Shown: positions 29,589 to 50,900, counted from the first letter of the stretch. The stretch is 51,446 nucleotides of DNA from an uncultured Gammaproteobacteria bacterium (GCA_964477065.1 CAYZCU010000001.1:26042-77487); one strand, 5' to 3'. Notes: generated from the letters alone by a model not told the origin. Program-made: numbers and translations.

Positions 29589-30098
29589 ATGTCCTCACGC
29601 ACCATACACGTCAATGATCTGATGCAAAAGAATTATTCCTACACGTGCAGTGCGCCGATGGGGGCAGATTTTGATCCGCGATTCCGCCCTCAGCTCACCC
29701 CCAAGGAAATGCTTGAGCGCGGAGTGTTTGGCGGAAAATACATGACAGATTGCATGGCCGAATTTCCTGCAGATTGGTTCACACATGCGAAACTTTGCCC
29801 TGAGAAGCATGATCCAGCTCTGAACGAATTTGGCGTCAATGCAAGCCAACAACTTTCGGTCTGGCAAGCGAAAGGCTGGATTTATAAGGATGATCCCCGA
29901 GGATGGTTTCAATGGTACTGTCGGTACTTTATGGGGAGGCGCATTCCAGAGGAGGATGACAGGCAAATCAAAAGGTGGCTGGCGATGAAGCGACACATTT
30001 CACAAATTCGCAAAAACTGCGCACCGGGAGACTCATCATGCCGGCCAAAACAGAGACAAGCTCTTCTTCACTGGGCTTATAATAGTAGGAAGATGTGA
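29589..30098 (+). CDS. conserved hypothetical cytoplasmic protein
   Basis: GWFQWYCRYFMGRRIPEEDDRQIKRWLAMKRH looks like a widely conserved uncharacterised family. I cannot name the family from memory. Confidence 0.45.
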   Translation: MSSRTIHVNDLMQKNYSYTCSAPMGADFDPRFRPQLTPKEMLERGVFGGKYMTDCMAEFPADWFTHAKLCPEKHDPALNEFGVNASQQLSVWQAKGWIYKDDPRGWFQWYCRYFMGRRIPEEDDRQIKRWLAMKRHISQIRKNCAPGDSSCRPKQRQALLHWAYNSRKM

Positions 30099-30137: not shown

Positions 30138-30596
30138 CTAGGATATTCCTTTTTTATGTCCCTTGAGCTTGGTGAATCCGTATGCAACACCAGCACCGAC
30201 AACACCCGCAACAATATCACGAGCGTCAGGCGTACGAGTTCCAGTATTCACAACTGGATGGATGTACTGGTCAATTTCAAGCGCTGTATTGAGAGCTATT
30301 GCTGCCGCCGCAGATACTCTTGGACTTGTCCCCAAAACCGCTCTCATAAAATGGTAACTTAAATATGATCCTGTAGCTGGTGCACCATATGACTCTAAAA
30401 ACCGTGTAAGCATATCTGCACGGGTTCCGATGTAAACAATAGCTGAAGTGAGAAGTCCCATTAACTGGAGACTGTTCAATTTTTCATAATTGCCCAGTAC
30501 CAACGAAATTTCCCTTTCCCCCAACTTGTAGCTTACAAGCACTCCAGCGCTTTCTTTGTCTGTAGAAACAACGTGTCCTTGTTGATCATTTTCCAT
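30138..30596 (-). CDS. hypothetical protein
   Basis: 152-aa ORF with a Gly/Ala-rich C-terminal hydrophobic segment. No motif recognised. Confidence 0.35.
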   Translation of the reverse strand: MENDQQGHVVSTDKESAGVLVSYKLGEREISLVLGNYEKLNSLQLMGLLTSAIVYIGTRADMLTRFLESYGAPATGSYLSYHFMRAVLGTSPRVSAAAAIALNTALEIDQYIHPVVNTGTRTPDARDIVAGVVGAGVAYGFTKLKGHKKGIS

Positions 30597-32056: not shown

Positions 32057-32617
32057 TTATAAATTTGTGTGTTCGGACTGCTTCACGCGCACTGTCTCCG
32101 TCATCGTGTGTGTACTGACATAGGCAAGCGCATCGACGTCAGGATCATACAGCTCGATCATGTCAAGATCTGGTCGGTTTGGCAAGATACGGGCTCCAGT
32201 GATCACTCTCCCATCAATCATTTCTTGTTTAGTCTTGAGATATTCAGCCTGCTCCATATAAAAATCAACATCTCCAACATGATGGCGATAAGGATCTGGC
32301 TTACGAATATACAGATACATGTATGTCGTTTCGGGGATGTCTCCTTGCGACGGAACAATGATTGGTTCATGCAGTCGAAAATATTTCTGATGCAGATTAT
32401 CAGACTCCTCCGTCAGCTCTTTTCGCATGTTTGTCAGATAAACATATTCATCATCATAATGACAAAACACCCCCATATTTCCAGCATTTGGGAAATACAT
32501 TCCAAAGGATTGTTTACAGAGCTGATGACATGAAAAATGTATGTGTGAAATAGCCTCAAGAAGGGATTCCTTTGTTGTGATTGGGCTGAATCGATAGGAT
32601 CTTAATTGGTATTGCAT
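32057..32617 (-). CDS. hypothetical protein (186 aa)
   Basis: Long ORF packed between the OCD-like and Nudix genes. His/Tyr/Asp-rich, no motif recognised. Confidence 0.4.
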   Translation of the reverse strand: MQYQLRSYRFSPITTKESLLEAISHIHFSCHQLCKQSFGMYFPNAGNMGVFCHYDDEYVYLTNMRKELTEESDNLHQKYFRLHEPIIVPSQGDIPETTYMYLYIRKPDPYRHHVGDVDFYMEQAEYLKTKQEMIDGRVITGARILPNRPDLDMIELYDPDVDALAYVSTHTMTETVRVKQSEHTNL

Positions 32618-37707: not shown

Positions 37708-37772
37708 AGAGTTGATCCCGATGTATAACTTCGGGTGTTGCACACCCGAAGTTATACATCGGGATTGAGCTC
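37708..37772. repeat. nested-palindrome element, copy f (full length; perfect 51-nt palindrome 37715..37765)
   Basis: ATCCCGATGTATAACTTCGGGTGT-TGC-ACACCCGAAGTTATACATCGGGAT has 24-nt perfect arms. Flanked by GAGAGTTG on the left and TGAGCTC on the right. Confidence 0.9.
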
Positions 37773-37776
37773 AAAA

Positions 37777-39012
37777 ATGTCCCTTTCAGAACTATCATAC
37801 TACGTCAGAAAAATTGGACCTGTCGCGTTGGTAGGCTTCATAATGCTGATGATTTTTTACGTCATAATTACAACACTTTTATCACTCGCTCCGAAGACGT
37901 CACAACAGCAGACAAATGTCCCATATGCGCCACCGTTTGGGATCCTTGAACCAATCCATTTCGTGCATTCGATCAACTATCCATCAGACGTATCCTTCAC
38001 GATCGACAATATTGAGGGACGACCCATCACCACAGACACTGAAGCACTCGTTTATGCTGTCCCCTCAAGTCGAACGAAATTTGGCTATCAGCAATCATTG
38101 GCATTTATGGCAAAGGCAGTTGGCATCGATACTGAGACACAAAAGTATCAATTAAGGGGACTTAGCGCGCGCTATCAGGACGAACTGCGCACGTTGGATG
38201 TCGATATAACGACGTTTAATTTTGAATATGAGCTCAATTATAGGAAGACACCGACCATTTTTTCCCGAAGTGCAACACCCGATGTTAACACAGCCAAAGA
38301 GGAGGCAAAAAGCTTCCTTCGCAAGATGAATAAGTTTTCGCAATACCTTGCCCAGGGAACCCAAAATGTGATCTACCTATCGTATGATCCGCAAGTTGAT
38401 GTTTTTAATGTCGTTCAAACCCCAGAAGAAGCCAATGTTGTGGAGGTGGACTTTTTTGCGCCAAATCTCGACAACCACCCGGTGGTGTCGCCGACATATT
38501 TTAACAGTCATATCTTTGTCACCATGGTCTTCACACAAGATGGTCCTGTTGTGATCAAGTCACATGTTGCAAGCTTCGAACCTCAGACATCAATCCAAGC
38601 GGGACAGTCAGCGCCGGCCCAAGGGGCAGACGCCGTGCCAACTTCGGGAACGTATCCGCTCAAAACAGGTGACGAGGCATGGCAGGAGCTTATCACAGGC
38701 AAAGGTATTATTGTCTCACCTTCAAAAGGATCGACGAAAATCATTGTCCGAGAAATGTTTATCGGCTACTACGCACTTGAAGAATACCATCCGTACATGA
38801 TGCCCGTTTATGTATTCCTTGGGGATAATGGCTTTGCAGGGTATGTCTCTGCTGTGAAGAATGAGTTTGTCTCAAAGGTAGTCAAGCAAACAACCGCCCC
38901 GTCAGAGTATCCATTGCCAACTCTTGAAAGCGAACCGGCGACACCGACAGCTATGCCTGAACAGATAGAGACACCTATCCCAACAGAAGCTTCACCTGCA
39001 GAAAATATCTAG
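37777..39012 (+). CDS. hypothetical membrane-anchored extracytoplasmic protein
   Basis: N-terminal TM segment (IGPVALVGFIMLMIFYVIITTLL), large extracytoplasmic region, P/T/E-rich tail. An alternative start at 37735 (MLHTRS...) lies inside repeat copy f. Confidence 0.5.
   Translation: MSLSELSYYVRKIGPVALVGFIMLMIFYVIITTLLSLAPKTSQQQTNVPYAPPFGILEPIHFVHSINYPSDVSFTIDNIEGRPITTDTEALVYAVPSSRTKFGYQQSLAFMAKAVGIDTETQKYQLRGLSARYQDELRTLDVDITTFNFEYELNYRKTPTIFSRSATPDVNTAKEEAKSFLRKMNKFSQYLAQGTQNVIYLSYDPQVDVFNVVQTPEEANVVEVDFFAPNLDNHPVVSPTYFNSHIFVTMVFTQDGPVVIKSHVASFEPQTSIQAGQSAPAQGADAVPTSGTYPLKTGDEAWQELITGKGIIVSPSKGSTKIIVREMFIGYYALEEYHPYMMPVYVFLGDNGFAGYVSAVKNEFVSKVVKQTTAPSEYPLPTLESEPATPTAMPEQIETPIPTEASPAENI
38230..38286. 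repeat. nested-palindrome element, copy g (degenerate, in-frame inside a CDS)
   Basis: GAGCTCAAT, then 25 nt, then CCCGAAGT-GCAACACCCGATGTT. This is the same 14-nt internal deletion type as copy b. It encodes ..YELNYRKTPTIFSRSATPDVN.. Confidence 0.6.
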
Positions 39013-43187: not shown

Positions 43188-43529
43188 TTATCTCATTGTC
43201 ACATCTGGCATCCTTGTATTATAGTTATGACTCCAATCAAAGGGAGCACTACATGATCCACATAAACCTTTTCCCTGACGAAGCAAGCGCATAAGTACTT
43301 TATCTAGGTAGGTATCAACTTTGTATATAGACAAGTCAAAATAGTCGATTGTGTCAATAATTCCTCTGCCATGGCACTCACCTCGAGAAATAAAAGCAGA
43401 TCGGTGAGGAGGAATGTCAATCTCTTGGCCTTTTCTGTAAAAGACTCCTCGATACCTCTTCTCCAATTGTTCTGCCTTTTTAATTTGAAAAAGCCTTACC
43501 CGTCGTCTGAATGCTTCTTGTGAACCCAT
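43188..43529 (-). CDS. hypothetical protein (113 aa, basic N-terminus)
   Basis: ORF with a TAGAAT box (43537..43542) 7 nt upstream of its ATG. No motif recognised with confidence. Confidence 0.4.
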   Translation of the reverse strand: MGSQEAFRRRVRLFQIKKAEQLEKRYRGVFYRKGQEIDIPPHRSAFISRGECHGRGIIDTIDYFDLSIYKVDTYLDKVLMRLLRQGKGLCGSCSAPFDWSHNYNTRMPDVTMR

Positions 43530-47013: not shown

Positions 47014-47044
47014 AAAAAAAACAGCGACACGAAGTCGCTGTTTT
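47014..47044. terminator. bidirectional intrinsic terminator (strong for the minus-strand PPIase gene)
   Basis: A8-ACAGCGAC-acgaa-GTCGCTGT-TTTT: an 8-bp stem, with T8 after the hairpin on the minus strand. Confidence 0.7.
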
Positions 47045-47061
47045 CAAAACCGCCAAACCTT

Positions 47062-47738: not shown

Positions 47739-48008
47739 ATGACCATCGAAACTATCTTTTACACGCTTGGCGTTATCTCCATGACCATCATGCTTGGCGT
47801 CATGATTGGGTTGATTGTGATGATTATTCGTGTACGATCAGCTCTCATCTCATTTCGTGATGGATTTGCAGGCAAGGTTATTGGCATTCTTCGCGAAAAA
47901 AATATGAAAGTGGCGTCCGCACTTGGGTTGACGCTTGCCCATTATTTTATGAATACGATGAAGAAAAATTTTGCAGAAAAGGCTCGCTCTCGAGAAAACA
48001 ATTCTTAA
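47739..48008 (+). CDS. hypothetical small membrane protein (89 aa)
   Basis: One strong N-terminal TM segment and a leaderless-type promoter. Confidence 0.4.
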   Translation: MTIETIFYTLGVISMTIMLGVMIGLIVMIIRVRSALISFRDGFAGKVIGILREKNMKVASALGLTLAHYFMNTMKKNFAEKARSRENNS

Positions 48009-48871: not shown

Positions 48872-48891
48872 AGCTGAGGATAGTATACCAG

Positions 48892-49269
48892 TTATCGGTT
48901 CTGGGGATAGACAACAAGAACACCTTTATCATGAGGGTACGTAGCAATAGGAGAATCGAGACTTTGTCGAATAACAGATGTCGCACCTAAATGCCATACC
49001 TCATCTTTTAGTCTGTAAACTGAGGAAGGGTCACTAAACCTTCTTCCGACAGCTCTTATAAGTAAGTTGGGATCATAATCATATACACCATTATTGGTGA
49101 CTTGTAGATACACACCTGCTCCTCGTTGAATATTACGCTGCAGAGCCTCCCTCATAAAAGGTAATAGGCGACCATGACCATGCCCAAAACTCTCAAATGA
49201 GAGTGTCTCAGCAATTTGTGCGACATGCCTTTTCGATACACTTTGTCCTTGTGCAAGTTCGATTTTCAT
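48892..49269 (-). CDS. unknown-family protein, paralog A (125 aa)
   Basis: Shares with paralogs B and C the pattern sF.eav...G.G(V/L)(Y/F)...(A/L)(V/M/L)G...L(K/N)(R/L)(L/F)K...YP(Q/E) at the C-terminus. Starts 2 nt after the stop of B. Confidence 0.5.
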   Translation of the reverse strand: MKIELAQGQSVSKRHVAQIAETLSFESFGHGHGRLLPFMREALQRNIQRGAGVYLQVTNNGVYDYDPNLLIRAVGRRFSDPSSVYRLKDEVWHLGATSVIRQSLDSPIATYPHDKGVLVVYPQNR

Positions 49270-49271
49270 AG

Positions 49272-49751
49272 TTAAAAATGTTGAGGATATGTAAGTAGAA
49301 CACCTCGTGAATGGTGGAAAGTATGTGGATGTTGCAATGGATACGCATCAGCTTTGAAGTCATAACCGACTGCTGATACACAACGCTTTAATCGTTTCAG
49401 TGAACGAGCATCACCTGCTGTATATCCCATTGTAGCCAAAAGAAGAGTTGAAGAATTATACTGCTCAAAAACTCGAAAAAATAGCCCACCTCCAGGATGG
49501 ATATTATGCCTTACAACTCCACGAACTGCCTCTCTAAAGCTTTGTGTTACAGGGGCAAGTGATGTCCCAATGGTAATATTTTCAAGAACAGATTCAGGTA
49601 ATCGATGAATTTGGCCTTTTGACTGCAATTCGATCAACATATCTGCATATAGTACCAAAGTTTGCTGAGACGTCAACGAGCATTTATCGATTTCGGGGAG
49701 CACGAAAGAGGATGCCTGCTGAACTTGCTCCTCTGAAAGCTCTATATGCAT
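49272..49751 (-). CDS. unknown-family protein, paralog B (159 aa)
   Basis: MHIELSEEQ parallels MKIELAQGQ of paralog A. It also has PGGGLFFRV and GVLLTYPQHF. Confidence 0.5.
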   Translation of the reverse strand: MHIELSEEQVQQASSFVLPEIDKCSLTSQQTLVLYADMLIELQSKGQIHRLPESVLENITIGTSLAPVTQSFREAVRGVVRHNIHPGGGLFFRVFEQYNSSTLLLATMGYTAGDARSLKRLKRCVSAVGYDFKADAYPLQHPHTFHHSRGVLLTYPQHF

Positions 49752-50049
49752 CTGGGTTCATTTCTGGATATGAATGAGCTACAACTGTAACCGGGTGATA
49801 TCCTTCAGTGTATGTTTTAAATAAGTTGAGAGCTCGCAGATCGAAGGGCCCACCGAGAGCATCTACGTAAATATCCCCATCTCGATACACCCCAAGACCC
49901 CTATCATTTTCAGGAAAATGAGATAGAACAACTCCTTGAAGAAACGATGTAGCTGTTCTATCTTGAGACAACCCAAGAAGCCTTGCTGCATGTACTACCT
50001 CAGGATGAAGACCATAAAAATCTGCTTTCCGACATTCAACTACTTTCAT
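49684..50049 (-). CDS. unknown-family protein, paralog C (121 aa; C-terminal 23 aa overlap paralog B)
   Basis: RGLGVYRDG...ALNLFK...VVAHSYPEMN, followed by a 23-aa tail read over the start of B. ATGA overlap with the secF stop. Confidence 0.45.
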   Translation of the reverse strand: MKVVECRKADFYGLHPEVVHAARLLGLSQDRTATSFLQGVVLSHFPENDRGLGVYRDGDIYVDALGGPFDLRALNLFKTYTEGYHPVTVVAHSYPEMNPDAYRAFRGASSAGILFRAPRNR

Positions 50050-50900
50050 TTCTTCCTCCCCTCAAACCAAACGAGTAACGGTGTTGCAACAAACGGAGAT
50101 GAATATGTCCCTGTAACTGTTCCAATGAGTAGTGCGCCTGCAAAAAATTGTATCGCAGCTCCGCCCATAAACGTCAGAGGAATCAGCATCAAAATAATCG
50201 TAAATGAATTATTCAGAGATCGGACCATCGTTTCAGTGAGCGCGCGATTGGCCAACATCTCGATCGGAAGCCCTGATGTGCGACGATACTCGCGAATTTT
50301 ATCAAACACAACAATCGTATCGTGCACAGAGAACGACATTGTAGTCAAAAGTGCCGTGACAAAAAGGGCATCAACTTCTGCCCCGAGATGTCCCAACAAT
50401 GCATAGCCACCTATCAATACGAGAAAATCGTGAAGCATTGCCAAAACAGCAGACATGCCATAGCTGAACTTCTTAAAGGTATATGAGACATACAGCAAGA
50501 TTCCCAAAATAGCGACAATCGAAGCGATAATCGTCTTGCGGATGGTTTCGGCCCCAAGAGATGGGCCAACGGTATCGAAGGTGAGCACATCAACTTTCCC
50601 AGCTCGAGCGAGGAGGGCTTTGCGTATAGTGCCTTCCTGTGTTTCAGTCATAGGAGTTGCTCGCGCTTCAATTTCTCGCGCCGTGACAGTAAGCTCAACG
50701 AGTTTGATCTTTTCCTTTTTGAACATATCACGCACTTCACTGTCAGAGACAGGCTTTGCAACACGATAGCCAACGACAGACCCACCAGTGAAATCAATGC
50801 TATATGTCAATCCCGTTGTCACAAGTGTGTAGATCCCCACCCCAATCACAAAACTGGAAATCAAGACATACAACTTTGTGTATTTCAAAAAATTAATCAT
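50046..50900 (-). CDS. secF: protein translocase subunit SecF
   Basis: FLKYTKLYVLISS...GIDFTGGS, six TM segments, typical SecF length. ATGA overlap with secD. Confidence 0.9.
   Translation of the reverse strand: MINFLKYTKLYVLISSFVIGVGIYTLVTTGLTYSIDFTGGSVVGYRVAKPVSDSEVRDMFKKEKIKLVELTVTAREIEARATPMTETQEGTIRKALLARAGKVDVLTFDTVGPSLGAETIRKTIIASIVAILGILLYVSYTFKKFSYGMSAVLAMLHDFLVLIGGYALLGHLGAEVDALFVTALLTTMSFSVHDTIVVFDKIREYRRTSGLPIEMLANRALTETMVRSLNNSFTIILMLIPLTFMGGAAIQFFAGALLIGTVTGTYSSPFVATPLLVWFEGRKK

Follow-up and report, generated by a model that had tools for sequence, protein, structure and literature searches.

In the window, the stretch of 51,446 nucleotides of DNA analysed here, three small genes lie between secF and the gene for a Cas4-like nuclease. 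We name them C, B and A in the order in which they follow secF. The features of the locus are as follows.

50046..50900, minus strand: secF (PF02355, E 7.7e-45, and PF07549)
50055..50059, minus strand: Shine-Dalgarno sequence GGAGG serving C, within the 3' end of secF (read from the sequence)
49684..50049, minus strand: gene C, 121 aa, a soluble orphan coupled to secF (ORF listing and orthologues)
49681..49699, minus strand: upstream copy of an imperfect 19-nt direct repeat, at the 3' end of C, including CGATAA
49641..49683, minus strand: spacer of 43 nt between C and B with a promoter-like element (promoter scan and conservation)
49272..49640, minus strand: gene B, 122 aa, start MLIEL (conserved start and called product)
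48892..49269, minus strand: gene A, 125 aa, a paralogue of B (BLASTP against B and orthologues)
48889..48907, minus strand: downstream copy of the imperfect 19-nt direct repeat, at the 3' end of A, including CGATAACTG
48882..48890, minus strand: extended -10 element (TGGTATACT), 10 nt ahead of the nuclease start codon
48005..48871, minus strand: Cas4-like PD-(D/E)XK nuclease gene, 288 aa (PF12705, E 4e-23; PF01930, E 2e-7)

As the preliminary description had it, the ORF listing gives three consecutive ORFs on the minus strand at 48892-50049, and the gene that comes next encodes, by its Pfam match, a Cas4-like nuclease, with 20 nt between the stop codon of A and the nuclease start codon. The ATGA said to join secF and C is present at 50046-50049, where the stop codon of the former overlaps the start codon of the latter, and it is kept in the loci L002, L003 and L035. 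It is accompanied by GGAGG, and this Shine-Dalgarno-like site of C is one of just 7 across the 55 gene starts in the window. The 2-nt gap between the stop codon of B and the start codon of A was likewise found in the sequence (3 nt in L035). Each of the three proteins has a mass of about 14 kDa. Their maximum 19-residue Kyte-Doolittle values of 0.4-1.25 bear out the reported lack of TM segments, there being no stretch of transmembrane length in any of them.

The surrounding window is a housekeeping neighbourhood, with genes for GluRS, a class II aaRS, RecJ, a CCA-adding enzyme, a PPIase and an ABC transporter, and a scan of this neighbourhood found no toxin, phage or mobile-element gene near the trio. 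Convergent with the nuclease gene lies an 89-aa hydrophobic ORF at 47739-48008 (plus strand), which has no Pfam match; the 3' ends of the two overlap by 4 nt, and TATACT stands 6 nt ahead of the start codon of the ORF. Five more ORFs, of 113-425 aa, also have no Pfam match at E<=0.001; they are located at 37735-39012 (plus), 43188-43529 (minus), 29589-30098 (plus), 30138-30596 (minus) and 32057-32617 (minus). The sole strong terminator-like hairpin of the region, with a 12-bp stem and a T run, is located 3' of the PPIase gene at 47017-47045 (minus strand); from secF to the nuclease gene, the region scan detected none.

Start of B and promoter-like elements

B had been described as a protein of 159 aa whose gene overlaps C, and both statements had to be revised. 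The longest ORF, at 49272-49751, does have this length, but its upstream start is unconserved: L002 lacks the MHIEL start and has no ATG upstream of MLIEL, and in L005 an in-frame TAA separates the MHIEL codons from MLIEL. In all orthologues, including those of L002, L005 and L035, MLIEL is the start of B, and the product given by the gene caller and the database has 122 aa. Because B starts at 49640, the genes C and B do not overlap but are separated by a conserved spacer of 43 nt.

The 46-nt stretch formed by this spacer and the stop codon of C is 89-91% identical between lineages, against 55-62% for the coding flanks. A consensus scan places a promoter-like element in the spacer, with the -35 element TTGACG at 49676-49671 followed, after 16 nt, by the -10 element TACTAT. 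Together with a preceding TGg, the -10 element occupies 49657-49649, and the start codon of B is 8 nt downstream. We also considered an RNA element in the spacer, which was rejected because the spacer had no match in Rfam and RNA folding gave no stable fold (z-score +0.9).

A motif TGnTAnnnT beginning 15-19 nt before the start codon occurs at 9 of the 55 genes in the window, where about 0.3 would be expected from the density of the motif in the window. The starts with such an extended -10 are 14822(+), 19606(+), 22423(-), 22506(+), 33527(-), 34884(-), 35104(+), 48871(-) and 49640(-), and in L008 and L009 an equivalent TGnTATACT precedes the start codon of the nuclease gene at a distance of 6-8 nt. 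The promoter-like element before B, together with a layout common in this genome, suggests that B and A are probably a transcription unit of their own, a bicistron expressed from a leaderless mRNA. To judge from the motif counts, this organism probably makes leaderless transcripts from extended -10 promoters as a rule, which would bear on how genes are called and operons inferred in genomes of this kind; a search of the literature for leaderless expression in the Candidate Phyla Radiation returned nothing directly relevant. The proposal that the whole trio is translationally coupled to secDF and co-translated with it is thus upheld for C, through the ATGA and GGAGG, but not for B-A with their own promoter-like element.

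Relatedness and family membership of C, B and A

All three genes had been taken for paralogues, and for A and B this proved correct. BLASTP aligns the two proteins with E 4e-7 and 31% identity over 87 residues, and their Smith-Waterman score of 77 compares with 27.6 +/- 4.6 for shuffled sequences (z 10.8; 0 of 2000 as high). A and B arose by tandem duplication. The same did not hold for C, which matched A and B in BLASTP only at E 0.15-0.3; comparing an A/B profile with C or with a C profile in hhalign gave E 0.14 and 0.2, and the family HMMs of A/B and C did not match each other even at E 5. When profiles were compared by permutation, 21 of 400 shuffles reached the score of C against A/B (local version only, the semi-global end-gap-free score having collapsed to 0). 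In none of these comparisons did C show significant similarity to A or B. No further paralogues were found within the window or the 39 loci.

A remote kinship of C with A/B is suggested by their equal size, colinear alignment, shared element order and similar gene ends, and on balance we lean towards a common ancestry. The three proteins are near-equal in length, an alignment of 10 A, B and C sequences is colinear, and the AF2 models of C and A contain eight elements at matching positions in the common order beta-alpha-alpha-beta-beta-alpha-beta-beta. The gene ends read G-[VIA]-L-x-x-x-P-[QR]-N-R-stop and agree at 15-16 of 19 nt. C could be a far older copy. Against this kinship, confidence in the models is no more than middling, and among the fold matches of C are several de novo designed proteins, so that the fold may be a generic one.

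The view that the proteins contain no known domain was supported by all the sequence collections searched. In Pfam-A 2025, NCBIfam 20, PHROGs 4 and PADLOC 2, B and C had no match and A had only chance-level ones (E 0.1-0.2). Ten family members scanned at E<=10 had no Pfam family in common, searches of PDB sequences by phmmer and by profiles found no match for A, B or C, and no source names any family member. Nor did structure prediction, which the preliminary description had proposed, reveal a significant known fold. The AF2 models, built on 3-4 sequences, reached pLDDT 68.8 and pTM 0.62 for C and pLDDT 70.6 and pTM 0.68 for A (one of five models confident), and Foldseek searches, of A and C against PDB and of C against BFVD, yielded nothing with E below 0.04. 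The top matches, none of them significant, were SpoIIAB-type GHKL proteins for C (E 0.07, TM 0.42), with a phage GHKL protein ranked second in BFVD, and MntA/MNT antitoxins for A (E 0.1-0.5, best 0.11; TM 0.33-0.36).

Several candidate identities were considered and rejected. An MNT or Pol-beta-type nucleotidyltransferase is not supported at the level of sequence, as the motif hG[GS]-x9-13-Dh[DE]h is unconserved: GxG is conserved, but DxD occurs in some A alleles only, is absent from the B of the window and from P0005, and is differently spaced in C. A nucleotidyltransferase fold for A was dismissed on its best Foldseek match (E 0.11, TM 0.34-0.36). For a HEPN-MNT module there is neither a PADLOC or Pfam HEPN match nor a HEPN partner; B contains RGVVRH, yet it is predicted to be alpha/beta and is paralogous to A. 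A GHKL or SpoIIAB-like kinase was rejected for C, which has no Pfam HATPase_c match and no N, G1 or G2 boxes. Its DxGxG-like string is unconserved, 'DRGLG' in the window corresponding to 'TTGLG' in P0003.

No sequence or structure search links A, B and C to anything described; they belong to one or two orphan families, and it is as protein families that they are new. Much of the gene content of Patescibacteria is unannotated, so that one more orphan family is in itself unsurprising.

Comparisons with orthologues at dS 0.25-1.8 gave dN/dS of 0.33-0.48 for C (0.36 against L002), 0.33 for B and 0.18-0.38 for A, with 0.02-0.06 for secF. ORF lengths are retained, as are, even in the A allele that diverges most, all residues invariant between A and B. 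Gly, Leu and Pro account for most of the positions that never vary in the A/B family, the others being R40, N46 and S83. With dN/dS well below 1 and their ORF lengths kept, C, B and A are, on this evidence, real coding genes.

Distribution and strain variation

Relatives of the trio are few. A word-index search of 5.8e9 proteins with B found only B itself, and word-index and profile searches with C over 5.8e9 proteins returned only P0002, P0003 and P0008. P0002 (99% identity) and P0003 (53%) are C orthologues of the same length; the third, found with a profile, is a 52-aa fragment. A profile of A and B, run with full HMMER against 1.84e9 representatives, recovered only the A-/B-type orthologues P0004 and P0005 plus two artefacts, and orthologues of A are P0004 and those of L005 and L035. 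The artefacts, P0006 (1463 aa) and P0007 (1078 aa), with E 1e-7 and 2e-4, are not homologues, their scores against the A/B profile being sums of 9-10 short matches to repeats; the repeats are of the 'GSYDYDPNG' type in one and TPR-like in the other. No relative of A, B or C came to light when 185,579 species genomes, the metagenome contigs of JGI and the viral contigs of IMG/VR were scanned by pattern.

A scan with SecF, whose best match has 70% identity, places the organism of the window in the Microgenomates (Roizmanbacteria/Woesebacteria-like Patescibacteria). The trio is missing from every one of the 28 genomes of related species that SecF retrieved, the one with 70% identity among them. 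In the closest genomes (L007, L008 and L009) the nuclease gene directly follows secF, and in L010 and L012 the gap between the two is filled by unrelated small ORFs. The one in L012 (5391-5747, plus strand) encodes 118 aa and is Cys-rich with an N-terminal hydrophobic segment; the one in L010 (6820-7095, minus strand) encodes 91 aa and has the opposite orientation. Small accessory genes thus seem to collect at the junction between secF and the nuclease gene as at a hotspot, and the trio is an insertion into this conserved junction, itself a variable slot.

Among the collections searched, the trio is limited to one narrow clade of Microgenomates (Patescibacteria). The survey of gene neighbourhoods therefore bears out the linkage to secDF only in part: every homologue found sits after secF, but all come from this one narrow clade, and the nearest species are without the trio.

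Many of the closest SecF relatives (L007, L012, L013, L020, L021, L024, L025, L027 and L030) are MAGs whose records bear the title 'uncultured Gammaproteobacteria bacterium'. In SecF similarity, and for L007 and L012 in synteny as well, they fit Roizmanbacteria/Woesebacteria genomes, and the titles are probably a placeholder or a wrong taxonomy.

Within the clade, the locus varies among strains. In L003, L004 and L037, which come from different samples and are all 97-99% identical to the window in secF, C and the nuclease gene, the order is secF-C-nuclease, without B-A. The indel that comprises B-A measures 792 nt and has at its borders the two copies of the imperfect 19-nt repeat, one at the end of C and one at that of A; accordingly, positions 1950-1968 of L003 align both to 49699-49681 and to 48907-48889, and the 20-nt junction to the nuclease gene is kept whether C or A precedes it. 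The diverged L035 (about 25-40% at the nucleotide level) has the synteny secD-secF-C-B-A-nuclease-x-PPIase. Because the trio is present in this diverged locus, loss of B-A by repeat-mediated deletion is the parsimonious reading. As judged from its absence in some strains, the B-A pair is dispensable.

Alleles differ as well. In L006 the flanks match the window at 98-100%, but A is only 75% identical in nucleotides and 66% in amino acids; between L006 and the window, dS is 0.62 for A and 0.08 for the nuclease gene. L005 is a mosaic, with a C tail 86% identical to the window and an A 90% identical to the L035 lineage, and L038 and L039 have a patch of raised divergence across the B/A junction in otherwise identical sequence (between L035 and L038, at L035 ~2321-2445). 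Single-nucleotide deletions frameshift C at ~1734 of L035 and B at ~913 of L038, the latter at the same site in L039 (two samples). A-allele substitutions are spread over about 300 nt. A diversity-generating retroelement was rejected, as the C-B-A region is not repeated beyond 14 nt in the 51-kb window; the scan for reverse transcriptases covered part of the window ORFs. Deletion, allele swapping and frameshifts thus sit beside near-identical flanks within a few kb of an essential operon.

Interpretation and comparison with known systems

The reading that we favour, and to which we give about an even chance, is that C, B and A form a clade-restricted, dispensable and recombining cassette of small soluble proteins and are not a core Sec component. 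C is read through from secF by stop/start coupling, and B-A would be transcribed from their own extended -10 promoter as a leaderless mRNA, with A presumably translated by re-initiation 2 nt past the stop codon of B. Some strains have lost B-A, most simply through recombination of the 3' end of C with the similar one of A, and alleles of B-A are exchanged between lineages. The prevalence of structural residues (Gly, Leu, Pro) among the invariant A/B positions suggests that A and B are more likely non-enzymatic binding proteins than enzymes. Tight coupling and the paralogy of their products make it plausible that B and A form a heteromer. In its population pattern, the trio would seem to resemble accessory conflict or immunity modules rather than a housekeeping Sec component. 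Against the accessory cassette it must be said that tandem paralogues are unusual for toxin-antitoxin or defence pairs, that the housekeeping neighbourhood has no toxin, phage or mobile-element gene close by, that neutral decay of useless genes would also give frameshifts and deletion, and that, with AF2 models drawn from 3-4 sequences and one of the five for A confident, a remote tie to a known fold is possible.

Four other explanations were weighed, and all were placed below the accessory cassette. The position of the trio invites the idea that it is made together with SecD and SecF and acts at the translocon from the cytoplasmic side. All homologues found directly follow secF, and C is tied to secF by the conserved ATGA and a rare Shine-Dalgarno site. 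Yet the trio is missing from 28 of 28 related genomes retrieved with SecF, B-A are absent in strains with 97-99% identical flanks and stand behind their own promoter-like element, C is frameshifted in L035, and none of the three proteins has a membrane segment, which leaves such accessory factors quite unlikely. That the linkage occurs in one clade only, that the nearest species are without the trio and that near-identical strains are without B-A speaks against a functional partnership with SecDF, and a functional link of the trio to SecDF is unsupported beyond position. We find it just as hard to credit that the trio binds, regulates or inhibits the Cas4-like PD-(D/E)XK nuclease. The nuclease gene is the invariant downstream neighbour, with its 20-nt junction kept after A or C, but relatives without C, B and A still have it after secF, and it has an extended -10 promoter of its own. 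Adjacency is thus explained by insertion into a pre-existing secF-nuclease junction.

B-A might instead be a selfish bicistron, a toxin-antitoxin-like addiction pair in which A is possibly a degenerate MNT-like protein. Two small genes with their own promoter and tight coupling, the presence/absence polymorphism, mosaic alleles and frameshifted copies of B-A, and the MntA/MNT antitoxins heading the Foldseek list of the A model all accord with it. Since those matches are non-significant (E 0.1-0.5, TM 0.33-0.36), the G[GS]...DxD motif is unconserved in the family, no HEPN partner or PADLOC match was found and mutual paralogy as in A/B is atypical for such pairs, an addiction pair is again improbable. 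Still less probable is that the genes are functionless remnants, local duplicates that drift and are being lost. Such decay would fit the three strains with B-A deleted, the two lineages with frameshifts and a dN/dS that exceeds that of neighbouring genes several-fold, but dN/dS is well below 1 at dS above 1, all divergent alleles keep their ORF lengths and family-invariant residues, and the spacer with its promoter is more conserved than coding sequence.

Within the accessory cassette, a bolder version would make C, B and A an unseen fold family of heteromeric, rapidly diversifying cytoplasmic binders, immunity- or defence-like and under frequency-dependent selection, lodged in a hotspot of the secDF-nuclease operon and served by a leaderless promoter. 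We regard this version as unlikely; if true, the immunity- or defence-like module would imply allele-specific recognition of an invading or competitor factor. The locus offers a tractable example of how tandem duplication gives rise to accessory genes in reduced genomes and how these are retained and lost.

Among known systems, YajC is a small single-pass membrane protein that is encoded upstream of secD and widely conserved. Like it, C, B and A are small proteins of the secDF operon; unlike it, they are soluble, encoded downstream of secF, clade-restricted and without any Pfam match, the YajC family included. YajC or another conserved SecDF partner was rejected as an identity, since C, B and A have no hydrophobic stretch and 28 related genomes have no trio after secF. 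The GHKL anti-sigma kinases SpoIIAB and RsbW are the top, non-significant Foldseek matches of the C model, but C is without N, G1 and G2 boxes, and matches of the same rank include many de novo designed proteins. The MNT antitoxins (MntA; PDB 7aer, 6m6u and 5yep), in turn, share with A a length of about 120 aa and the alpha/beta class, and are the top, likewise non-significant, Foldseek matches of its model. HEPN-MNT systems and B-A are both strain-variable small bicistrons; they differ in that B-A have no HEPN partner and do not conserve the catalytic motif and that B and A are mutual paralogues.

Type II toxin-antitoxin pairs and the orphan immunity-gene arrays of polymorphic toxin systems are strain-variable accessory modules. 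The trio differs from such modules in that no domain of a toxin, an immunity protein or a DNA-binding protein is recognisable in it, no toxin gene adjoins it and its surroundings are free of mobile elements. It shares with them small cytoplasmic proteins and, in B-A, an own promoter and tight coupling, and tandem paralogy as in A/B is a feature of immunity-gene arrays. Presence/absence polymorphism, allele shuffling and occasional frameshifts are likewise common to these modules and the trio locus.
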